DNA of 39,616 nt from positions 1-39,616 of IMG/VR virus record IMGVR_UViG_3300045988_080187; one strand, given 5' to 3'. Below are positions 7,716-33,852 of this stretch, one piece after another (position 1 is the stretch's first letter; each line of letters opens with the position of its first letter). Source of the stretch: a virus. The position numbers were made by a program, and so were the translations under genes. The notes below the pieces were generated by a model. That model was not told the origin of the DNA and ran no database searches. It was given only the letters and a program-made list of their open reading frames with translations.

Positions 7716-8048
7716 CTACTTCTTTAATGTGATTCTCAAGCTAGCTTTCACAGTTGCTTCTTTGCAGTATGCTTCATACAGTGCAGGACTTTGATTCTGC
7801 AATGACTTTGAATCAAATCTTTCTGCTGTGTGCTCTGGTGTGTAAGAGATTGTGAAACAGTCGTTCTTGATTTGTGTCACTCCATATTTTTCCATCTGCT
7901 TCATCAGCTCCTGCTTCATTTCATCCTGCTTCGCCTTGATTGCTTTCGCTGTTTCTTCTAGCTTTTTGATATATGTAATTGTTTCCTGTGGAACCTGTGC
8001 CACACCATTTTCATAGATGATTACATCATTTACCTGTAGTTCGCTCAT
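7716..8048 (-). CDS. Hypothetical protein, 110 aa, possibly Gp157-like, the usual partner of Sak-type recombinases.
   Basis: Its position immediately downstream of the single-strand annealing protein, its size and its coiled-coil character; the sequence match is not confirmed. Confidence 0.35.
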   Translation of the reverse strand: MSELQVNDVIIYENGVAQVPQETITYIKKLEETAKAIKAKQDEMKQELMKQMEKYGVTQIKNDCFTISYTPEHTAERFDSKSLQNQSPALYEAYCKEATVKASLRITLKK

Positions 8049-18907: not shown

Positions 18908-18946
18908 CAAAAAAAGTGCAAAAAAAGAGCAATCATTTCTGATTGC
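18908..18946 (-). terminator. Intrinsic terminator after the LuxR-type gene: hairpin GCAATC-N6-GATTGC plus a U-run on the minus strand.
   Basis: Read from the sequence. Confidence 0.55.
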
Positions 18947-19196
18947 CCAATTCGCATGCCTTTTTTACTCTTTTTGGAAGCAATGGAGTATATTTCTGTA
19001 TCTTATCGTACTTGGTTCTTAATATACGAATCATATTGTTTACAGTGCTTCGACTTACTCCAAGTTCGTATGCAATATCTTCTATACAACTTCCATGTGC
19101 TTTCATTGTCATGAGTTTTGCTTCACGTTCTGATAAGCATCCAAATTTTATAAATTCATTTAGACGTATCTCATTCCAAACTACTTGATGTGCCAT
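18933..19196 (-). CDS. GerE/LuxR-type HTH regulator, about 87 aa; the start is taken at the ATG of MAHQVV.
   Basis: LSEREAKLMTMKAHGSCIEDIAYELGVSRSTVNNMIRILRTKYD fits the LuxR/GerE HTH pattern; single-domain size. Confidence 0.6.
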   Translation of the reverse strand: MAHQVVWNEIRLNEFIKFGCLSEREAKLMTMKAHGSCIEDIAYELGVSRSTVNNMIRILRTKYDKIQKYTPLLPKRVKKACELGNQK

Positions 19197-19326
19197 TCTT
19201 GTCTCCAACTGTCAGCTCATCGTATTCTTTTTGCGTGAGCTTCTTCTTTGCTAGCAGTACATCCAAACGTTCCCTGCCCCAATAAGTAGGGTAGTACTTC
19301 TTAGCTAAATCAAATACTGATTTCAT
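19171..19326 (-). CDS. XkdX-like small protein, 51 aa (MKSVFDLAKKYYPTYWGRERLDVLLAKKKLTQKEYDELTVGD...), not in the ORF track.
   Basis: Hand translation with an ATGA overlap to the upstream gene. The pattern Y..W...R..V..G.IT.eEY..IT is typical of the PBSX XkdX family. Confidence 0.45.
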   Translation of the reverse strand: MKSVFDLAKKYYPTYWGRERLDVLLAKKKLTQKEYDELTVGDKNGTSSSLE

Positions 19327-24600: not shown

Positions 24601-24638
24601 GCTTTCTCCCTTACCTGCATATTTTCAAACGAATCAAA

Positions 24639-24680
24639 CTCACCGTTCCGCAAAAAAGAGCAAAGCTCATGCTCTGCTCT
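24639..24680 (-). promoter_or_regulatory. Late-gene control element: an intrinsic terminator hairpin (24657-24680) followed in the transcript by TTTTTTGCGGAACGGTGAG, about 45 nt upstream of the tail-associated lysin start.
   Basis: The motif CTCACCGTTCCGCAAA occurs 3 times in the window (24639, 33266, 38540), each time preceded by a terminator. Confidence 0.55.
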
Positions 24681-25383
24681 ATAATTCGTACCATCTTGGT
24701 TTTACTGTAACTTTTGTGATTCCTGTACCCAATGTGATTGTGTTGTTTCCACTTGTTAAGCCGCCCCATTGGTTTACTTTGATATTGCTGTTTCTGTTAG
24801 CTGTTCCTTCATATGCCTGCTTCGAATCGGTATCTATCTCAATGTAGTCTGTTCCTGCTGTATTTATTACAAATACATTAGTTCCTACTGTCACAGTTCC
24901 TTTTCCATAAACTCTTATTAGTGGTTTGGATGGAAATACAGTCGGATTCAGAATACTTCCGTTTTCAGTTAATACTGTTTCTTGTTCACCAGATTTCAAA
25001 TACCATTGTGGCTTGCAGTCAAATTCAAGTTCAAATGTGCCAATTCCACGTGCAAGTTTTATCTTTCCTTCGATTCCACTTTTCAGTCTTCCTAAGCGAT
25101 ACATATCTTGTTTGAAATCATCTTCAATTCTCACATATCCATCTTGAGATAGAATTGCACTTCTAAACGGAACAAATTTATCTTCAAATTCATGTGCAAT
25201 AAATGCTTGATACGTTATATCAACATTTTTATACCTGCCATTATTGATATGCAAATCACCATTTCTACCTGCTATTTCATAGCTTGTATAGTCTGGCTCT
25301 GGAGAAGCATAGATTCCTGCATCAGAAACAAATACACCATAGTCTTTACAATTGATATTCCCAACAACTAAATTTCCAATCAT
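24679..25383 (-). CDS. Distal tail protein (Dit).
   Basis: Its position immediately after the tape measure gene, its 234-aa size, and the typical Dit N-terminus MIGNLVVGN... Confidence 0.7.
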   Translation of the reverse strand: MIGNLVVGNINCKDYGVFVSDAGIYASPEPDYTSYEIAGRNGDLHINNGRYKNVDITYQAFIAHEFEDKFVPFRSAILSQDGYVRIEDDFKQDMYRLGRLKSGIEGKIKLARGIGTFELEFDCKPQWYLKSGEQETVLTENGSILNPTVFPSKPLIRVYGKGTVTVGTNVFVINTAGTDYIEIDTDSKQAYEGTANRNSNIKVNQWGGLTSGNNTITLGTGITKVTVKPRWYEL

Positions 25384-27656
25384 GCGAATACTTCCTCTTC
25401 TTTCTTTCTGGCTTTTTCGAGCTTAATCATCAATTCTTCTACAAGCTCATCAATATCCATTCCTTCAGAAGCATAGACATTGATTACAATTCCACCACTA
25501 GTCTTGTATTTGCTTGAACCTTCTGACTTATTAGAATCTGTAACGGATTCACCAATTGCTTTCACAGAAGCCTTGACTGACATTGAATCTGCTTCTTTCA
25601 TGACTTCTTTACCCATGTCAGCCATTGAAGAAATTACTTCTGAAGCATTATCATCAATACCTTTTGACATACCATACATGAGCATCTTACCTACCCATGC
25701 AGTCTTCTTTGATGGAGAATGGATTCCAAAGAATCCCTTGATTGACTTCAATACTTTGTTAGTGAACCCACCAATAAGATTGATAATCCAACCTGTCATA
25801 TTGCTGATTCCATTCCAGATTCCTCTAACAAGATTTGAACCCAAATCAGCCCAATTGATATTCTTGAAAGAATTAAATGCTGACTTACCGATATTCCCAA
25901 CTGCTGTCCAGACTAAATTACCAATAGACCTTACTGCTGTTGCAATCAGCTTGATTGCGTTGTGACCTGCTCCAGACCAATCAATGTTTGAAAAGAAATT
26001 CTTAGCATTTTGACCGATTGTCTTAACTGCATTTGGGATTTGTGATGATAGATTTTTAATTCCATCAGTTACCCATTTAATCAAGTTCTTACCTAAATCA
26101 ATCCAATTTAAAGCACTCCAAACAGCTATTACTGCTTCAAAAATCTTCGGAATATTAGCAAGCAAATCTGGAATTGCATTGATAATTCCTTGGCCTAAAG
26201 TAATAAGCATTTGCACACCTGCTACTAGTAACTTAGGCAAGTTGTCGTTAATCAAGCCACAGAATTCAATAATGATTTGTGGTACATAAGCTATCAGCTG
26301 TGGAAGCCCATTTGCAATTCCTTGTACTAGATTCTGCAGAAATTCAATTCCTGCATCGACAATTGTTCCAAAGTTAGCTCTCAATGATTCGGCAAACTGC
26401 AAAATCATAGGTAAGGCTTGTTCCAATAAATTAGGTATACCTTCGATCAATCCTTGAGAAAGACCTACAATCCACTGTGTACCACATTGAATTAACTGAG
26501 CTAATCCATCTCCTGTAAACCACTCAAATACTTTTGTTCCAAGTTCTTGGAAAACAGTTACAACTGATGACAGTGCTTCTGACATTGATGTATATATTCC
26601 ACTCCAATCAACTTGTGTCATTAGAGTTGAAATAATCGTAGGTATAGTTTCAACTATAGATGATAACAATGCAGGTAAAGCACTCACGATTCCACTGACT
26701 AGTGCTGCAGCACTTGTTAAAAGGCTTGGAAGAAGCGTAGATATCATAGTAGGTAATTCTTTATTGATAATAGGGATAACTGCACCAATAGCTTGCACAA
26801 TGCCTTGAAATGCTTTCTCTACAACAGGTAATACATTATTAAATGCAACAGTAGCAGATGATACAAACGTATCTACTGCTTCACCAACATTATCTAAGTA
26901 TCCTTCTACTTCTGTATTTCCAAAAGCAACTAGCAAATTTTCCCATGCCATCTTAGTCATGTTCAATGAGCCTTGAATTGTTGTTTGTGCTTCTTTTGCT
27001 GTAGTACCTGCTATGCCTTGCTTTTCCTGCACTAATTCGATTGCTGTAACAATATCTGAAAATGAATCAATGCTCATATCAGATGCTTTGCCTATAGTCT
27101 TCGCATACTCGTTTGCATCATCAATCAGCCTTTCCATTTCTTCTTTCGTTCCACCATACCCTAGTTTCAAGTTGTCTAGCATTGTATAGTTCTGCTTGGA
27201 AAAACCTTTATATGCATCTGTAATTGATTCTAAATCACCACCAAATGTATTCCAGTTATCAGAAATTGCTCTCATTGCAACTTCTGTTTGTTTAGATGCT
27301 TCTTCTGAATTTCCTTTTAAAGAGCTTATCAACGATGCAGAAAACTGAGTTGCTGTTTCCATATACTTATTTGCAGACATTCCAGATGTCTTATAAGCAT
27401 TGACTGCATTCTTCATTACTGAATCATATGCATCACTATATAGCTTTTTAATTCCACCAGCATTTTGCTGAAAGCCAGAAAAAGAATCAACTGTTTTTTT
27501 TGTTAATAAGCCAATAGCTGTTGCTCCTGCACCAACTGCAACACTAATTCCTTTTGCTACTGACTTAGCTGTATTTGAAACCTTTTCTAATCCTTTATCA
27601 AAGTCAGAAGAATCCATGCTTAATTTGGCGAACATTTCAAATACGTCTACTGACAT
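25380..27656 (-). CDS. Tape measure protein.
   Basis: 758 aa, alpha-helical and Gly/Ala-rich with hydrophobic repeats (IGLLTKK, AIPDLLANIPK...), between the chaperones/lysis cassette and the distal tail protein. Confidence 0.9.
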   Translation of the reverse strand: MSVDVFEMFAKLSMDSSDFDKGLEKVSNTAKSVAKGISVAVGAGATAIGLLTKKTVDSFSGFQQNAGGIKKLYSDAYDSVMKNAVNAYKTSGMSANKYMETATQFSASLISSLKGNSEEASKQTEVAMRAISDNWNTFGGDLESITDAYKGFSKQNYTMLDNLKLGYGGTKEEMERLIDDANEYAKTIGKASDMSIDSFSDIVTAIELVQEKQGIAGTTAKEAQTTIQGSLNMTKMAWENLLVAFGNTEVEGYLDNVGEAVDTFVSSATVAFNNVLPVVEKAFQGIVQAIGAVIPIINKELPTMISTLLPSLLTSAAALVSGIVSALPALLSSIVETIPTIISTLMTQVDWSGIYTSMSEALSSVVTVFQELGTKVFEWFTGDGLAQLIQCGTQWIVGLSQGLIEGIPNLLEQALPMILQFAESLRANFGTIVDAGIEFLQNLVQGIANGLPQLIAYVPQIIIEFCGLINDNLPKLLVAGVQMLITLGQGIINAIPDLLANIPKIFEAVIAVWSALNWIDLGKNLIKWVTDGIKNLSSQIPNAVKTIGQNAKNFFSNIDWSGAGHNAIKLIATAVRSIGNLVWTAVGNIGKSAFNSFKNINWADLGSNLVRGIWNGISNMTGWIINLIGGFTNKVLKSIKGFFGIHSPSKKTAWVGKMLMYGMSKGIDDNASEVISSMADMGKEVMKEADSMSVKASVKAIGESVTDSNKSEGSSKYKTSGGIVINVYASEGMDIDELVEELMIKLEKARKKEEEVFA

Positions 27657-27670
27657 GTTTTTCTTCTCCC

Positions 27671-27703
27671 ATAAAAATAAAAGGTTAGCACCCCATACTA
27701 ACC
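27671..27703 (-). terminator. Intrinsic terminator on the minus strand (GGTTAG-N9-CTAACC plus a U-run) 15 nt upstream of the tape measure start, downstream of the lysis cassette.
   Basis: Read from the sequence. Confidence 0.6.
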
Positions 27704-27782
27704 TATGCGTGTGCGTCCTTTCTGCTTTACCTATCTTTCGATAGTGTCACGCCCCTAGAGTTGCGACCTCTCCCTGTATACG

Positions 27783-28154
27783 CTATATTTTGTGATTGAG
27801 ATATTCATCAATCTCTTTGCTTACTAGCTGAATATCATCGGTGTTTTCTCCACCTAGCTGATTTTTAAGAGTGGCTTGTGTTCCCTTCATAAGCAATCGT
27901 AAAATCACATGGTTATCCTGTTGTTCCTTAGTCATCGTCAGAACTGTTGATTCAAGAGCTTTCAACCTTTTGTTGTCAGAATCTAACAGCTCTTTGTTAT
28001 GTGCTACATCTCTTTCGAGTTTTGCAACAGAAGTCTTTGAACGACACCATGTAATGAATTTAGCGACTGCTGTTACAGCCCCTGCAACACTTGCTCCATA
28101 GACGATCCATTGAGCAATCAAAGCCCACACTTCCATTGGTATCTGTGCAGGCAT
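27783..28154 (-). CDS. Holin-like / lysis accessory membrane protein, 123 aa, with an N-terminal transmembrane segment and a C-terminal coiled coil (XhlA-like role).
   Basis: The transmembrane segment EVWALIAQWIVYGASVAGAVTAVAKFI; located beside the holin and lysin. Confidence 0.5.
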   Translation of the reverse strand: MPAQIPMEVWALIAQWIVYGASVAGAVTAVAKFITWCRSKTSVAKLERDVAHNKELLDSDNKRLKALESTVLTMTKEQQDNHVILRLLMKGTQATLKNQLGGENTDDIQLVSKEIDEYLNHKI

Positions 28155-28157
28155 TTA

Positions 28158-28421
28158 TTACCCCTCAGCTTCGTCTACTGTCTTTTCTGTTTCTTCTTCA
28201 ATATATTCTGTTTCAGAATCCATTTCTTGCTTAAGATTCAATGCAGATACACCAATCAGAACACCTACAAGTGTTCCTAATGCCTGTAATGTCTTTGCAA
28301 CTTCGGCTGTATATGGAAGGTTCCAAATAGCACCAATAGTTGAGTAAAATGTTCCAATTGCAGGTAATGCAATTAAAGCTACCCATTTCAATACTTTGTA
28401 TACTCTGTCATTTAATACCAT
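28158..28421 (-). CDS. Holin of the SPP1/BhlA type, about 87 aa; start at MVLNDRVYK after GAGGAGAAAAATA.
   Basis: Two transmembrane helices (WVALIALPAIGTFYSTIGAIW and LGTLVGVLIGVSALN) and an acidic C-terminal tail. A strong RBS precedes the internal ATG. Confidence 0.65.
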   Translation of the reverse strand: MVLNDRVYKVLKWVALIALPAIGTFYSTIGAIWNLPYTAEVAKTLQALGTLVGVLIGVSALNLKQEMDSETEYIEEETEKTVDEAEG

Positions 28422-28432
28422 TATTTTTCTCC

Positions 28433-29269
28433 TCAAGGATTTGCATTTGTTAGATATGGTGATGTACCACTGTTTACCTTCGCACCACTTGATACATATC
28501 CTTCTTTCTTTCCGTCTGTCACTCTGTACCAAACTGTATTTCCGTTATATGCATAATAGCCATAGTAAGTAACGGTAGTTCCCTTTGCTAAGGTCTTTAC
28601 GATAGATGCTTTAGTGGAAGCATCAGTTCGCATATTAAGTGCAACCTTAGTAACCATCTTCTTTCCTTTGCCATAGCCTTTTACAAATCCATGCTTGATT
28701 GTTCCACCACTAGATGGATTTGATACAGTGTATGGAACTGTTTTAGTTGTCTTCCATGACAGCCCACCACCGTTTCTGATATATGAATAGCCATCTAATA
28801 AGAACAGCATTTGGTTAGCTCTAAGCATGTTTGCTAGGATATAGCCACCTTTACTATTTCTGTATTTCTGTCTGACATGACCTGCACAGATTTCCAAGTG
28901 AATGTGGTTCCCTGTAGCGTATCCAGAAGTACCTTCTTGATACATGATTTCGTTATACCCATAGAATTTACCAACTATAAATGACCGTTTACTATGAGTT
29001 AATGCAAGAGTGATGTATCTTAATGCACCATCTGCACATAAGACCTTCTTTGGTTTTCCATCTTTTCCGTAGCTCCAGAAGAAGCGAGTATTTCCTGTGT
29101 TTGCATTTCCCCATGCACCTGCACAGTACCATCTTGTGTTAGGCATCTTGTTTCTCCAGACATCTACACCTGTATCCATACCTGCAAGATCTACTTCAAA
29201 ACTAGTATGGGAATAGTGATTTTTTCCATCATATCCAGAGCCAACTTGAGACACATTCAGACACTTCAT
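28433..29269 (-). CDS. Endolysin: an M23-like peptidase catalytic domain plus a C-terminal SH3b cell-wall-binding domain.
   Basis: GTSGYATGNHIHLEI resembles the M23 HxH motif (stG.HLHFE). The C-terminus VALNMRTDASTKASIVKTLAKGTTVTYYGYYAYNGNTVWYRVTDGKKEGYVSS is SH3b-like. Confidence 0.65.
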   Translation of the reverse strand: MKCLNVSQVGSGYDGKNHYSHTSFEVDLAGMDTGVDVWRNKMPNTRWYCAGAWGNANTGNTRFFWSYGKDGKPKKVLCADGALRYITLALTHSKRSFIVGKFYGYNEIMYQEGTSGYATGNHIHLEICAGHVRQKYRNSKGGYILANMLRANQMLFLLDGYSYIRNGGGLSWKTTKTVPYTVSNPSSGGTIKHGFVKGYGKGKKMVTKVALNMRTDASTKASIVKTLAKGTTVTYYGYYAYNGNTVWYRVTDGKKEGYVSSGAKVNSGTSPYLTNANP

Positions 29270-29285
29270 TCCGAATATTAATCTG

Positions 29286-29513
29286 TCATAAGTTTCTATC
29301 TTGTTCTCCCTTTACAACCTTTAATCCTGCTTTATTTAGAACATCAGAAATGATTTCATTCGCGTTTCTAGTTTCAACTTTTTTGTTTATCAAATCATAA
29401 TATCGTGTGTTTAATCTCTTATTATCACTTTGATAAAACATAGAATCTGTCACATAAATGCGATATGTTTCATCTTTCTGCTGCTGTTTAAACCGTGCAA
29501 TCAAATAGCACAT
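29286..29513 (-). CDS. Tail assembly chaperone distal part (gpT-like); possibly expressed by a -1 frameshift from 29522..29875.
   Basis: It lies in the -1 frame relative to the upstream ORF with an 11-nt offset; the G/GT position follows the major tail protein. Confidence 0.4.
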   Translation of the reverse strand: MCYLIARFKQQQKDETYRIYVTDSMFYQSDNKRLNTRYYDLINKKVETRNANEIISDVLNKAGLKVVKGEQDRNL

Positions 29514-29521
29514 GAAAGGTT

Positions 29522-29875
29522 TTACTTTGCTTCTGTTTCCTCTGTATTCTCCGTAGCAGAGCCAGAAGCATTCTGTTCCCCACTCTGTACGGAAGATTTG
29601 AAAAGTGACTGTACTGTTTCATCAGAGAATAAGTTGAATAAGTCAAATGCTAATGTTGCTAGATTGCAGTGATATTCTCCATCGGAAAATGCTGTCAAAA
29701 TCTGCATTGCTTCTTTTTTATGATTCTTAATCATATATGAAACAATTGTTGCAATTGGCTTATCCCTATATTTTTTAATTGCTTCATCAGCACAAATAGT
29801 AGAAATAGGTTCAACTACTTCTGCTAACACATCTAAAGCATCTTCATCTTTGATATCTTTAAATGCTCTAATCAT
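29522..29875 (-). CDS. Tail assembly chaperone (gpG-like), 117 aa, acidic.
   Basis: Its position immediately after the major tail protein, and its acidic character. Confidence 0.6.
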   Translation of the reverse strand: MIRAFKDIKDEDALDVLAEVVEPISTICADEAIKKYRDKPIATIVSYMIKNHKKEAMQILTAFSDGEYHCNLATLAFDLFNLFSDETVQSLFKSSVQSGEQNASGSATENTEETEAK

Positions 29876-30480
29876 GCTGTTACCGCCTTAGTCTTACCAG
29901 ATGATGATTGAGGGAATGTTGTACCATCTTGCTTGATATAGATTTCAAATGGAACTTTATCTTGATTCTTAAGTGAATAGTGTGCCATATATTCAAAAGC
30001 AAATTGCCCTTTATTTCTATCGCTTGTCTGGATTTGGAAGCCACCTGTAGATAATGCATTCATTAAATGACATGCAATTACTCCACCTTCTCCATAATCT
30101 GCTACAAGCCAAAAATCATTAAAATCTGTGTCTTTTACTTCGTCTCTAAGTGTGATATGACCTGCATCGTTAGAATCTGAATCAGCTAATGCTGCAAGAC
30201 TTTTTGCTGTTTTATCCGTAACAGAAATAAAAGTCCCACTTGCTTTGATTTCCCATGAATCAAGTTTCTTTAGCTCCTTCGTGTTTTTCGGGCAGTTATC
30301 AATATCTTCACCAAAATCCGTAAATGTTGGTGTTGCTGTAATGTTTGTACCACCAGAAGTTGCCCCCATAATATCAGCATCTTGAATAGTTGCTGTTGCT
30401 GGGTCAAATTTACTGAGTACTACGCCTGCATTTAATTGGATATTTTTAAACGCGTCTGTTGCTACTTTTGCAAAAGTCAT
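29872..30480 (-). CDS. Major tail protein.
   Basis: 202 aa, positioned between the connectors and the chaperones. Sequence recall is weak, so the call rests on position, not a confirmed match. Confidence 0.7.
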   Translation of the reverse strand: MTFAKVATDAFKNIQLNAGVVLSKFDPATATIQDADIMGATSGGTNITATPTFTDFGEDIDNCPKNTKELKKLDSWEIKASGTFISVTDKTAKSLAALADSDSNDAGHITLRDEVKDTDFNDFWLVADYGEGGVIACHLMNALSTGGFQIQTSDRNKGQFAFEYMAHYSLKNQDKVPFEIYIKQDGTTFPQSSSGKTKAVTA

Positions 30481-30489
30481 TTATTCTCC

Positions 30490-30858
30490 TTAATTTGTAA
30501 AATAATCAACCAACAGGTTGATGTATCTGCTTCTAATCGTGTCATCTTCTTCATCGCTTACTGCTTGACAATAAGGTGCCCCAGGATTTACCCAAAGCAT
30601 TCCGTCATCGCAAATAACTTGATTGTTCTCTTTTAACTTGTCTGTTAACTTTTGAACCATTGCATTTATTTCTTTTTCAGATGTTGTACGGTAATACAAT
30701 CTAACAGTATTTGATACTCGGTCAGGCCAACTACCTATTACATTTTGATATGTTCCATACGGATACGAAATTTCTTTCATGTCTGGAACATTCGTATCAA
30801 CATAGAAGGGAATCCCTAAATCATTGAACCATTTGTATATAGCTTGGTATTTATTCAT
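30490..30858 (-). CDS. Tail completion / neck protein, 122 aa.
   Basis: Called on position. Confidence 0.5.
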   Translation of the reverse strand: MNKYQAIYKWFNDLGIPFYVDTNVPDMKEISYPYGTYQNVIGSWPDRVSNTVRLYYRTTSEKEINAMVQKLTDKLKENNQVICDDGMLWVNPGAPYCQAVSDEEDDTIRSRYINLLVDYFTN

Positions 30859-31204
30859 TAGGCAACTCCCATCTTTCTGCTGATACTACACTCATATCAA
30901 TCGTTGAGAATGAAGGCGATGCTTTTTCTTCTGCATTGGATGTCACTCTAAAGATTACTCCATCTTCAATACGCTTGATCACGTCGTGATAATCTAATTT
31001 CACCTGTCTACTTGTCGTTATCCTAAATGTAGATGTAACTCCATCATGTTCTGCAATCTTAGCCTGCATACTATTGTTCTGCGTAATTGCACACATGATA
31101 TGAGCACCTTCTTTCCACGTTGTTATGGTTCCACCTTCGCCATCAGATAAACGTTGTTTTTCTAGAATCACACATTCTTGCATCATTCTTTCATATAGCA
31201 TCAT
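30851..31204 (-). CDS. Head-tail joining (head closure) protein, 117 aa.
   Basis: Called on position and size (phage_H_T_join-like). Confidence 0.5.
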   Translation of the reverse strand: MMLYERMMQECVILEKQRLSDGEGGTITTWKEGAHIMCAITQNNSMQAKIAEHDGVTSTFRITTSRQVKLDYHDVIKRIEDGVIFRVTSNAEEKASPSFSTIDMSVVSAERWELPNE

Positions 31205-33195: not shown

Positions 33196-33265
33196 TTATA
33201 CGTGTCTCCTTTTCTTCGGTGGCGATTCTTTGCCATTCAACACTTGTATTTTTGCTTGAAAATCA

Positions 33266-33318
33266 CTCACCGTTCCGCAAACATAAAAAAAAGTGAGAAT
33301 TCCTCTCACTTGATTTTT
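33266..33318 (-). promoter_or_regulatory. Late-gene control element: an intrinsic terminator (GTGAGA-N5-TCTCAC, flanked by A and T runs) followed in the transcript by TTTGCGGAACGGTGAG, about 75 nt upstream of the scaffold start.
   Basis: Second copy of the conserved motif. Confidence 0.55.
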
Positions 33319-33647
33319 TCTTTCAGTACGGTCTGAAATATTGCTTTGTATTCTTCAGCATGTTCACTCGCAGATGGCTTAAGAAATGGCTGTGCTTTTT
33401 GCCTAGATGTGCCGAATTCTACATATGGTGCATATTCAACATTCGTTCCAATGTATTCATCTCCATCAGCATATTGATGCCCAATACTATTTCTTAGGTT
33501 TCCTGTATCAACAGGACAAGCTATTTTTGCATAGCCTTCAGCTTGCATTCCTATTGCTTCCATTGCCCTTTCAACAGCATTGTTCTTCTGATTGATGATA
33601 TCCTTTCGCCTGTCATTCTTAAATTCTATTTCACAGTATTTAGACAT
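33306..33647 (-). CDS. HK97 gp10-like protein, about 113 aa; the start was moved to MSKYCEIEF (track ORF 33306..33725).
   Basis: The motif PVDTGNLRNSIG is the HK97-gp10 family signature. Confidence 0.6.
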   Translation of the reverse strand: MSKYCEIEFKNDRRKDIINQKNNAVERAMEAIGMQAEGYAKIACPVDTGNLRNSIGHQYADGDEYIGTNVEYAPYVEFGTSRQKAQPFLKPSASEHAEEYKAIFQTVLKEKIK

Positions 33648-33648
33648 G

Positions 33649-33852
33649 TTATTTTTCACCTTTCTTTTGGCCGAAATCTCTGTAAATATATTTTTCAAGG
33701 TCATTAATAGCTTTTTTATTTTCATTGAATGCTTTTTTTACGTCATTCGGTGCATCTTCTCGGATCTTTAATTCAAGAGTTTCTTTGTCTATGACATACC
33801 ACTTCCTATCAATATCTTTTAATTCAATCATAGTTTTCTCCTTCTCAACCAT
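33649..33852 (-). CDS. Small hypothetical protein, 67 aa.
   Basis: ORF track. Confidence 0.4.
   Translation of the reverse strand: MVEKEKTMIELKDIDRKWYVIDKETLELKIREDAPNDVKKAFNENKKAINDLEKYIYRDFGQKKGEK

Follow-up and report, generated by a model that had tools for sequence, protein, structure and literature searches.

A temperate gut phage was found to carry its lysis genes inside the tail operon, between the tail assembly chaperone genes and the gene for the tape measure protein. We refer to the whole stretch of DNA that was analyzed, 39,616 nucleotides of an IMG/VR virus record (IMGVR_UViG_3300045988_080187), as the window. A check of the open reading frames found every gene of the original prediction at its claimed position on the minus strand, in the order major tail protein, G, T, endolysin, holin, a 123-aa membrane protein, a spacer and the tape measure gene. 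These genes very probably constitute a working lysis cassette that moved as one block from a position behind the fibre genes to the boundary of T and the tape measure gene. Its unusual location would be due to a ready-made post-fibre block having been spliced in at gene boundaries. Such a placement is ordinary phage mosaicism, in a new variant. The genes are as follows.

29872 to 30480, minus strand: major tail protein gene, 202 aa (phrog_885, E 4e-22)
29522 to 29875, minus strand: putative tail assembly chaperone G, 117 aa (by position, with homologues at the same place in relatives)
29286 to 29513, minus strand: T part of the putative chaperone, 75 aa, its frame being -1 relative to G (by frame analysis)
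28433 to 29269, minus strand: endolysin, 278 aa from the first ATG, with an M23-like endopeptidase of the phi29 gp13 C-terminal type and a C-terminal SH3b domain
28158 to 28421, minus strand: 87-aa holin of the Dp-1 family; two transmembrane helices, acidic tail (PF16938, phrog_881)
27783 to 28154, minus strand: 123-aa protein with an N-terminal membrane anchor, the rest helical or coiled coil; the conserved third cassette gene
25380 to 27656, minus strand: gene of the tape measure protein, 758 aa, N-terminus intact (phrog_58, E 8e-71)

The major tail protein has more than 590 relatives in IMG/VR, and the N-terminus of the tape measure protein aligns with those of its relatives. The Dit and Tal genes were also identified with PHROG among the tail genes, and Tal carries the usual tail endopeptidase-type domain. 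G and T, which had no family match in Pfam, PHROG or NCBIfam, are putative chaperones by position and by homology to relatives; the motif YRIYVTD is common to T of the window and T of the relatives. The -1 frame of T extends as an open frame about 26 codons upstream of the G stop, and relatives have the same two-ORF layout. No canonical slippery heptanucleotide (X XXY YYZ) was seen in the G/T overlap, the sole slippery candidate in G being A-AAG directly before the G stop (GCA AAG TAA).

The 278-aa protein had been proposed to be an M23-like peptidase with an SH3b domain, and both parts of this assignment were borne out. In Pfam, residues 210-262 match SH3_3 (PF08239; E 2.5e-11, 44 bits against a cut-off of 27), and PDB profiles of SH3b domains of endolysins were matched as well. 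Peptidase_M23 (PF01551) gave no match in Pfam even at E 0.1. The AF2 model (pLDDT 88.8) was matched by Foldseek to phi29 gp13 (3csq, E 2.9e-9, rmsd 2.9 over 182 columns) and, each with probability 1.0, to lysostaphin, EnpA, LytM and zoocin A. A PDB profile search aligned the protein with residues 170-329 of gp13 (E 6e-14), and there is a weak match to the phrog_9066 endolysin. Among 71 homologues H21 is invariant, and D27, H92, H122 and H124 are present in at least 90%; these residues align with SFSH..D, VHES and GDHWH of gp13, the spacing being H-x5-D and not H-x3-D. From the model and these motifs, the protein is an M23/LytM-type peptidase of the gp13 C-terminal subtype, predicted to cleave peptidoglycan cross-bridges. 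Clustering at 90% identity groups it with proteins of many contigs, 90 members in all. A homologue of 55% identity occurs in Stecheria intestinalis, and the lysin profile found only one MAG contig among bacterial genome contigs.

The adjacent gene, which begins 11 nt past the lysin stop, encodes the holin. Its earlier label, SPP1-type, had to be replaced: NCBIfam holin_SPP1 was not matched, and the only Pfam family at E ≤ 0.1 was Phage_holin_Dp1 (PF16938; E 1.8e-19, 70.3 bits against a cut-off of 25, full-length at 1-63 of 63), with phrog_881 holin at E 7e-21. The hydrophobic segments span residues 14-32 and 45-63. The 87-aa protein is thus a holin of the Dp-1 family, with a predicted role in hole formation and the timing of lysis. 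The 123-aa protein has, as foreseen, one N-terminal hydrophobic helix (residues 9-30). It gave no informative family match in Pfam, PHROG or NCBIfam, and a homologue search returned seven unnamed proteins. Proteins 57-60% identical to it sit after the holin in three other loci (L175, L176 and L004), and it is probably a holin partner or a lysis regulator. The third genes of homologous cassettes fall in two unrelated families. All three cassette genes are under purifying selection (dN/dS 0.04-0.46 overall, 0.06-0.16 for the lysin and 0.04-0.28 for the 123-aa protein), and their pairwise identities reveal that the cassette genes are themselves mosaic.

The resemblance to gp13 raises the question of whether the 278-aa protein is instead a virion-associated tail lysin used for entry, as gp13 is in phi29, with neighbours that are not holins. 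The best structural and sequence match is indeed this tail enzyme, the gene lies in a tail operon, and one member of the lysin cluster (GenBank TPA DAH27145.1) is named "Morphogenesis protein 1 hydrolase". Yet the match to gp13 covers the catalytic M23 domain only, and what follows is a wall-binding SH3b domain, a structural domain being absent. The holin encoded next scores above the Pfam threshold for the Dp-1 family, and wherever the precomputed Pfam record served to annotate a locus, the lysin homologue adjoins such a holin; most loci of the family are outside the tail module. Tal already supplies the usual tail endopeptidase-type domain. No second lysin or holin signature was found in the 29 other window proteins scanned, a scan in which membrane proteins such as holins are easily missed. 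We consider the tail-lysin explanation highly unlikely and treat the protein as the endolysin of a lysis cassette.

The 5' end of the lysin gene has been altered.

29297 to 29299, minus strand: codon ATA at the place of the ancestral lysin start (from a nucleotide alignment of lysin 5' ends)

The ancestral start codon is ATG in L175, L176, L004 and L002, TTG in L167 and ATA in the window; ATA also occurs in the near-identical L005, L008, L009 and L010 and, by identity, in L006. The Shine-Dalgarno (SD) sequence GGGAG lies 6 nt upstream of the ATA codon. The lysin may start at the ATA (29299) or at the first ATG (29269), at an uncertain level of translation, since the ancestral ATG is now ATA and the next ATG is without an SD. 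The reading frame is open up to 29311. We had also considered ATGACAGATTAA as a vestigial, frameshifted lysin start. This was rejected, as alignment with L002, L175 and L176 identified these bases as in-frame lysin codons 3-6, the real change being ATG to ATA. The start-codon change, shared by the window and five near-identical contigs, could be taken as the mark of a decaying remnant, with lysis carried out by something else. Against this stand the intact reading frame, the size of the lysin cluster, dN/dS values of 0.12 between two ATA-carrying genomes and of 0.04-0.22 for the other genes in comparison with close relatives, and the lack of an alternative lysin among the 29 other scanned proteins. 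Decay is extremely improbable, and the cassette is best regarded as functional.

Homologous cassettes occupy three positions. We call type A those at the boundary of T and the tape measure gene (the window, L005, L006, L008-L010, L165-L167, L171 and L176), and type B those between the major tail gene and G (L004, L012-L014 and L023), the latter in an HK97/Clp-type phage lineage that is unrelated to the window. The third position is the canonical one: the cassette clearly follows fibre or Tal genes in the annotated loci L002, L003, L007, L175 and L178, and in 44 of the 52 IMG/VR loci the lysin adjoins neither a major tail nor a tape measure gene, its place being apparently post-structural. The cassette genes at these three positions are closely related (up to 93% identity for the lysin, 85% for the membrane protein and 78-86% for the holin). 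The lysin and membrane protein of type-A L176 are 93% and 85% identical to those of canonical L175, and the holin and membrane protein of type-B L004 are 78% and 80% identical to them. In L175, a 2.9-kb contig, a fibre gene is followed by the lysin (86%), the holin, the 123-aa family protein, and then the spacer element, a homologous hairpin and an SD. The entire block is thus found behind a fibre gene, in agreement with the proposal of a transplanted module. With window positions 25000-31000 as query, blastn against annotated phages returned only short tape-measure matches and one unannotated faecal contig.

The site that the cassette would have left can also be recognized.

18933 to 19326, minus strand: vacated canonical site, with a 51-aa ORF (19171-19326) and a GerE-like 91-aa gene (18933-19208), by synteny with L178

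L178 shares with the window the fibre (76%), p140, the 51-aa ORF (78%), p150 and p245. Between its homologues of the 51-aa ORF and p150, where the window has the GerE-like gene GerE91, L178 has a lysin, a holin and a 127-aa gene. The supposition that the usual post-fibre site is now held by a GerE-like gene therefore withstood the comparison.

The expectation that G, GT and the tape measure gene are almost always contiguous failed in this lineage. Among the 80 closest relatives by major tail protein, T abuts the tape measure gene in 47, and the remaining 33 have cargo at this joint, which is an antisense bPH_1 gene (E 8e-33) in 30 and the lysis cassette in three. This joint often carries cargo. 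One could propose, conversely, that the order of T, lysis genes and tape measure gene is the ancestral norm of the family, with nothing relocated and with the post-fibre order derived or independent. In its favour, the order is stable across divergent type-A phages (L176 is 59% identical to the window in the major tail protein, 38% in G and 57% in T), and there is the type-B lineage (L023, major tail 68%, lysin 65%). The arrangement is thus not unique to this phage, being present in the divergent L176 and, at another joint, in an unrelated lineage. However, the three contigs that have it among the 80 closest relatives are all near-identical, and the lysin family lies outside the tail module in most loci. 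The block also brings a terminator and a foreign SD, both of which follow the post-fibre cassette in L175, and L178, with a window-like fibre module, has its cassette at the corresponding post-fibre position by synteny. An ancestral order is very unlikely on this evidence, and relocation is preferred. The direction and number of the transfers cannot be reconstructed from these sequences.

Genome comparison, the route suggested for finding the insertion boundaries, located both joints.

29306 to 29312, minus strand: left joint, after the T codon AAG (K, 29312-29310), at the SD-like AAGGGAG
27657 to 27670, minus strand: passenger ribosome-binding region, with GGGAG at 27670-27666, now serving the tape measure gene (window/L175 similarity)

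In relatives that lack the cassette, T ends in GL(V/I)VK directly at the tape measure ATG, the sequence being ...GTGGTGAAAC followed by ATG. The window has ...GTTGTAAAG followed by GGAGAAC..., and L176 has the same left joint. The last seven codons of T in the window (GEQDRNL) and its stop codon come from the 5' end of the inserted block. The right joint is at or beside the ATG, as the window and L175 remain similar from the terminator onwards, past the SD and up to the ATG of the next gene. The block, about 29309 to 27657, comprises the ribosome-binding site of the lysin, the lysin, the holin, the membrane partner, the spacer of about 80 nt, the terminator-like hairpin and the ribosome-binding site of the next gene at the donor site. 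Both joints are at SD/start-codon boundaries, and the block gives T a seven-codon tail and a stop, and the tape measure gene an SD.

The spacer between the 123-aa gene and the tape measure gene is 126 nt long and contains a hairpin and a T-run.

27705 to 27782, minus strand: conserved structured spacer element, present in all type-A loci and in L175
27671 to 27704, minus strand: intrinsic-terminator-like site, with a hairpin (27704-27682) and an interrupted T-run (27681-27671), from consensus scan and folding

The hairpin is followed by TTTATTTTTAT, the T-run stopping 15 nt short of the ATG at 27656. A strong terminator had been anticipated here. Its position was right, but the hairpin is moderate and not strong in view of its folding energy (-10.5 kcal/mol, z -3.4) and of the three G-C pairs among the ten of its stem, which also has three G-U pairs. 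The terminator consensus scan was not above chance, with 11 sites found against 9.2 expected. The homologous hairpin of L175 differs by two both-sided changes at the stem base (A-T to T-A and G-C to A-T). L005, L006 and L008 have a different hairpin and T-run at the same place (-11.5 kcal/mol), so that there are two alleles of similar stability. We also entertained the hairpin as part of a tape measure 5' allele, with a mosaic break at ...CGCACACGCAT, and rejected it, because L175 places the hairpin in the cassette block. The hairpin is terminator-like, with predicted termination, and by its homology to L175 appears to have travelled with the cassette as a passenger.

Upstream of the hairpin, the stretch 27704-27782 had been described as GC-richer and structured. 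The composition holds (50.6% G+C versus 36.5% for the window), whereas the folding of the spacer is unremarkable by itself (z -1.8 to -2.1). Its 5' hairpin is AGAG-GTCGCAA-CTCT, after which a long-range helix, GCGTG/CACGC, encloses the hairpin CTATC-GAAA-GATAG. The spacer sequence is kept in all relatives that share this arrangement and is also found 3' of the post-fibre cassette in L175, and its 5' module recurs in early-region spacers of about 150 nt in other phages. Compatible with the relocation is a reading of the spacer (27657-27782) as a cis-acting leader, a conditional terminator or nut/put-like antitermination site, that gates the next gene, here the tape measure gene. It would account for the recurrence of the element, then a terminator-like hairpin, then the SD and ATG of a same-strand gene in three contexts (before the tape measure gene, after the L175 post-fibre cassette and in the early-region spacers of other phages). 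Phages that are otherwise diverged have an identical 20-nt core. In each of the two length classes the terminator directly adjoins the long-range helix, and a both-sided change, from TGCTAG/CTAGCA to TGCCAG/CTGGCA, is seen in the long class. On the other hand, independent sequences are few, and RNAalifold found no covariation in the short class (six type-A spacers). The folding energy is not exceptional, no alternative antiterminator pairing is evident, and the exact 20-mer could equally mean recent exchange or a recombination "linker". Rfam 15 gave nothing better than E 3.7 for 27657-27782, and the related elements were also without a match. A regulatory leader is possible, if on the unlikely side. 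More doubtful is the broader proposition that these spacers of about 80-150 nt are an undescribed family of phage cis-regulatory RNAs for conditional termination that moves with gene modules, co-opted here to control how much of the tape measure and distal tail proteins is made, or when. The features of such a family would be the invariant hairpin AGAG-GUCGCAA-CUCU, GCGU(A/G)..AC before it, and the long-range helix stacked on the terminator hairpin; the RNA would be either a nut/put-like site of antitermination or an attenuator that binds a factor.

Late genes of this phage have a box, consisting of a hairpin, a T-run and GCGGAACGGTGAG, before terS, the scaffold gene and Tal. No such box follows the hairpin that precedes the tape measure gene, and for this reason that gene probably needs read-through. 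Neither was a sigma-70-type promoter found on the sense strand of the spacer, late promoters here probably not being of the sigma-70 type. We infer that the tape measure protein and Dit are most likely made by read-through past the hairpin; alternatively, the hairpin could terminate efficiently and an unrecognized promoter could lie in the spacer. Co-transcription of the cassette with the late structural genes would suffice for holin-timed lysis: the holin and its 123-aa partner would set the time, and the cytoplasmic endolysin would then gain access to the wall. The hairpin would be inherited baggage; as a partial terminator, it would leave less transcript of the tape measure and Dit genes than of the head and tail-tube genes, and the spacer element upstream might modulate this.

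These observations describe a clean module exchange, in which different phages have an essential function and its trailing, putatively regulatory RNA, in closely related form, at three gene boundaries. Both joints are at ribosome-binding sites, where T takes over a stop codon from the block and the tape measure gene an SD. For annotation, a gp13-like hydrolase inside a tail operon is not automatically a tail lysin, and an empty post-fibre site does not imply a phage devoid of a lysin. The terminator before the tape measure gene makes the dosing of low-copy tail proteins testable, and the conserved spacer element points to a possible new RNA motif of phages. No published case of lysis genes placed between chaperone and tape measure genes came up in a full-text literature search of incomplete coverage.

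The canonical cassette of Gram-positive siphophages, an endolysin and a holin at the end of the late operon, has the same components, tight spacing and late-gene strand, and relatives of the window have their cassette there. What differs is that the tape measure, Dit, Tal and fibre genes lie downstream of the cassette and terminator in the window. In phage P2 the lysis genes Y, K, lysA, lysB and lysC are located between head-completion and tail genes, within the structural array, and are expressed with the structural genes. P2 is, however, a myophage of Gram-negative hosts; its chaperone (E/E') and tape measure (T) genes do not flank the cassette, and no homology to the window cassette is known. 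Lysostaphin and the C-terminal domain of gp13 share with the window lysin the fold and the H..D, H and HxH motifs. Lysostaphin also has the same order of M23 and SH3b domains but is a secreted staphylococcal bacteriocin, and gp13, unlike the window lysin, is a tail protein with an extra lysozyme domain. In cluster F1 mycobacteriophages, LysF1a (88 aa, two TMDs) and LysF1b (a single N-terminal TMD) are both required for efficient lysis (PMC13056207). The window has the same pairing of a two-helix protein (~88 aa) and a single-pass anchored protein beside the lysin, in another type of host and with no homology expected; by this likeness of layout, the holin and the 123-aa protein may function as LysF1a and LysF1b do. 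Insertions near the tape measure gene have precedents in Microbacterium cluster EI, where unknown genes separate the major tail gene from the tape measure gene (PMC7302621), and in Tyroviruses, with a recombinase between neck and tape measure genes (PMC9703825). The window cassette resembles such tail-operon morons in its insertion precisely at gene boundaries, as does bPH_1 at the same joint in relatives, but its cargo differs from theirs in providing an essential function, in lying on the sense strand and in bringing a terminator.

The window covers an almost complete temperate siphophage genome, whose lysis genes are embedded in the tail module:

terminase, SPP1-type portal, MuF-like protein, scaffold and capsid (late genes), minus strand
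between the capsid and major tail genes, minus strand: three connector genes
29872-30480, minus strand: major tail gene (phrog_885)
3' of the major tail gene, minus strand: 117-aa ORF (putative G), then 75-aa ORF (putative T) in the -1 frame of the 117-aa ORF
between T and the tape measure gene, minus strand: 278-aa, 87-aa and 123-aa genes, then a 126-nt spacer
25380-27656, minus strand: tape measure gene (phrog_58, E 8e-71)
3' of the tape measure gene, minus strand: Dit, Tal, DUF859 fibre protein and a group of small genes
after the small genes, opposite strand to the late genes: integrase

We take the 117-aa and 75-aa ORFs to be the G and T chaperone parts from their position, frame and homology to relatives. 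This order bears out the original prediction of lysis genes between the chaperones and the tape measure gene (27657-29269). Between the MuF and scaffold genes, upstream of the capsid gene and thus in an odd spot for a connector gene, lies a gene for a phrog_5 Neck1/tail-completion-like protein (33306-33725, minus strand; E 4e-25). The MuF-like minor head protein (544 aa; 33828-35462, minus strand) is extended at its C-terminus by a region with an HExxH motif (VTHEYGHMI). It weakly matches the anthrax lethal factor domain (PF07737, E 0.008) and could be a fusion of MuF with a toxin or a metalloprotease.

The 278-aa protein carries an SH3_3 domain at its C-terminus (E 2.5e-11); its N-terminal domain gave no match to the Pfam M23 model. 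The AlphaFold model, built on 71 homologues (pLDDT 88.8), resembles the phi29 tail enzyme gp13 (3csq, E 2.9e-9), lysostaphin, EnpA, LytM and zoocin A. The lysin family profile matches gp13 residues 170-329 (E 6e-14), and the H..D, H and HxH motifs, the most conserved positions in the family, align with gp13. The 87-aa protein, with two hydrophobic helices, had been called an SPP1-type holin; the type is wrong, as its full-length match is to the Dp-1 family (PF16938, 70 bits; phrog_881). The 123-aa protein has a single N-terminal hydrophobic helix and a helical remainder, and family searches returned no informative match; homologues of 57-60% identity come after the holin in the comparison contigs L175 (2.9 kb), L176 and L004. 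The two-component holin-like pairs of cluster F1 mycobacteriophages (PMC13056207) offer an analogy, on which we read it as a putative holin partner or lysis regulator. Purifying selection acts on all three genes (dN/dS 0.06-0.16 for the lysin, 0.2-0.46 for the holin and 0.04-0.28 for the 123-aa gene). Among the post-fibre genes, the ten largest ORFs of the early region and those head and packaging genes that were scanned, no further lysin or holin signature was found.

With the lysin family as probe, three placements of the cassette were found. In the majority of loci (lysin identity 86% down to ~30%) it lies outside the tail module. In the annotated loci L002, L003, L007, L175 and L178 the lysin is directly 3' of the fibre or Tal genes; the remaining IMG/VR loci of this kind have neither a major tail nor a tape measure gene beside it, and in many of them it follows Dit/Tal genes or precedes an integrase. 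The window's own order (type A: major tail, G, T, lysin, holin, 123-aa gene, tape measure) is present in the near-identical L005, L006, L008-L010, L165, L166 and L171, in L167, and in the divergent L176 (identity to the window 59% for the major tail, 38% for G, 57% for T and 83% for the lysin, with the capsid at 83% as compared over 63 residues). Type B (L004, L012-L014) belongs to a phage unrelated to the window, with a Clp protease, a TTP_1 tail tube and a capsid of HK97 type; here the lysin, holin and 123-aa gene stand between the major tail gene and G, and the tape measure gene follows G. L023 is a more divergent type B without the 123-aa gene, and the cassette is absent from this joint in more distant relatives of the type-B tail tube. 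By pairwise identity, the cassettes are closely related across the three positions: 93% (lysin) and 85% (123-aa protein) between L176 and the post-fibre L175, 78% (holin) and 80% (123-aa protein) between L004 and L175, and 86% (holin) between L176 and the post-fibre L002. In L004 a terminator-like hairpin (GAAGTAC-TTAAA-GTACTTC, then TCTTTTATT; ~7955-8000) separates the major tail gene from the lysin, and the cassette, chaperone and tape measure genes are all 3' of this attenuator.

On the 3' side of the 123-aa gene, L175 has the same spacer start as the window (TAGCG..GGGAGAGGTCGCAACTCTAGGGAGCGTGAG ... ACACGCAT). Its hairpin GTAGTTAGTATGGGGTGCTAACTAC is a homologue of AGGTTAGTATGGGGTGCTAACCT in the window, and two changes at the base of the stem are both-sided; its T-run and ...AAAGGAGAAAAAACCTATG come next, the latter aligning with the window's ...GGGAGAAGAAAAACATG. 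The similarity therefore extends to the start codon of the next gene, which encodes an unrelated protein in L175 and the tape measure in the window. At the left joint, the T gene of cassette-less relatives ends ...GGATTGGTGGTGAAAC and directly abuts the tape measure ATG; the window has ...GGATTAAAGGTTGTAAAG followed by GGAGAAC..., the lysin SD region as found in L004, L175 and L176. This comparison places the insert (~29309-27657) exactly between the last core T codon and the tape measure ATG. The insert supplies T with a new 7-codon tail and stop codon, and the tape measure gene with a new SD:

29288-29286, minus strand: new T stop, TGA, within lysin codons 4-5
27670-27666, minus strand: new tape measure SD, from the insert

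The fibre protein of L178 is 76% identical to that of the window, and this locus also has homologues of the window genes p140, the 51-aa ORF (19171-19326; 78%), p150 and p245. Its lysin, holin and a 127-aa gene lie between the homologues of the 51-aa ORF and p150, the position held in the window by the GerE-like 91-aa gene. The synteny agrees with the proposal that the cassette was displaced from a post-fibre site now held by this gene and, together with the L175 block with its 3' element and the exact joints, supports the reading of a transplanted module. At the former lysis site (18933-19326, minus strand) the GerE-like gene has the look of a self-contained insertion. Its start is overlapped for 38 nt, in a different frame, by the 51-aa ORF (minus strand), and its stop by a hairpin with T-run (18948-18927).

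In place of the ancestral lysin start codon (ATG in L002, L004, L007, L175 and L176; TTG in L167), the window and its near-identical relatives have ATA (29299-29297) and keep the SD GGGAG 6 nt upstream. The next in-frame ATG (29269) is without an SD, 16 nt past the T stop, and a start there drops ten conserved residues (TTYDRLIFG+M). Between two ATA-carrying genomes dN/dS is 0.12, still purifying selection. The lysin could possibly start by weak initiation at AUA or by re-initiation at Met11, and is 288 or 278 aa long by the start used (29297-29299 or 29269). We speculate that either start would lower lysin output at the new, more promoter-proximal position.

The state of the joint between T and the tape measure gene was counted in the 80 IMG/VR relatives closest to the window in major tail protein (identity 55-62%, except three near-identical contigs). 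T abuts the tape measure gene in 47/80; an antisense bacterial PH-domain gene (bPH_1, PF08000, E 8e-33) occupies the joint in 30 and a lysis cassette in 3, so the assertion that G, GT and tape measure genes are almost always contiguous does not hold in this lineage. Because one or the other cargo is found there, we read the joint as a recurrent cargo site in the lineage, the unusual part being the cargo itself. The bPH_1 gene (for example L067:7256-7678, minus strand of the locus; the other 29 loci are among L066-L142) is a moron, convergently transcribed within the tail operon. The tape measure gene is interrupted by an HNH/NUMOD4 endonuclease in five of the 47 abutting relatives (L110:7219-9858, L142, L085, L066, L068), being split after ...FAKQNYT by a ~0.8 kb HNH_3/NUMOD4 insert, which suggests an intron or homing element; Rfam gave no group I intron in L110 at the gathering threshold.

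Of the strong intrinsic terminator predicted before the tape measure gene, the hairpin and T-run are present; the strength is not, as the dG of -10.5 kcal/mol falls within the span of the genome's other terminator-like hairpins (-8.6 to -15 kcal/mol) and the T-run is interrupted. Three other late-region hairpins have the box GCGGAACGGTGAG right after the T-run:

24638-24680, minus strand: hairpin, T-run and GCGGAACGGTGAG before Tal
33265-33311, minus strand: hairpin, T-run and GCGGAACGGTGAG before the scaffold gene
38539-38580, minus strand: hairpin, T-run and GCGGAACGGTGAG before terS

This 16-mer is found 3 times, where 0.12 matches would be expected. Directly upstream of the box before terS, a 111-aa ORF (38571-38906, minus strand) has a sub-threshold match to the RinA family of phage late activators (TIGR01636, E 3e-5, 24 bits; cut-off 31.9). 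We infer that the boxes may be late promoters or activator sites restarting transcription past each terminator; the hairpin and box composites look as if they divide the late region into units. The box is absent after the hairpin that precedes the tape measure start. On the simplest reading, tape measure and Dit would be transcribed by read-through from the scaffold-proximal unit, with the passenger hairpin attenuating their transcription, which would fit the low virion copy number of both proteins. At the post-fibre site of L175 the same element and hairpin stand ~24 nt before a same-strand gene, so read-through or regulated termination seems to be the element's normal mode of operation.

The 20-nt core of the structured stretch in the spacer, GAGAGGTCGCAACTCTAGGG, is also found beyond the type-A phages and L175, in ~150-nt early/middle-region spacers of the contigs L163, L164/L172, L168, L169, L173 and L174, two of which bear a related lysin at a post-structural site. 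In every context the order is a GCGT(A/G)..AC box, the hairpin AGAG-GTCGCAA-CTCT, AGGG, and a long-range helix closing just before the terminator-like hairpin, T-run, SD and ATG. For this helix the short class has GCGTG/CACGC and the long class TGCTAG/CTAGCA; the long class shows one both-sided change to TGCCAG/CTGGCA and both-sided changes in an inner hairpin too. Rfam has no match for the spacer element or related elements. This putative conserved spacer RNA is the most novel element of the case; given its few independent sequences, we regard it as a lead and not a finding. The ~150-nt spacers have covarying helices and a terminator-like hairpin after the shared 5' module; next comes a 103-aa gene, and a sigma/RinA-like regulator follows a few genes further downstream. 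L169:1283-1337 (+) matches the type-P1 twister ribozyme below threshold (37.7 bits, E 4e-5; gathering score 67.2).

A full-text literature search returned no report of a lysis cassette between chaperone and tape measure genes; PMC7302621 and PMC9703825 describe other insertions in the stretch from the major tail gene to the tape measure gene. The case is a well-documented instance of ordinary phage mosaicism; its outcome is unusual and recurs in two lineages, at two joints. Lysis cassettes embedded in structural arrays are known from P2-like phages.
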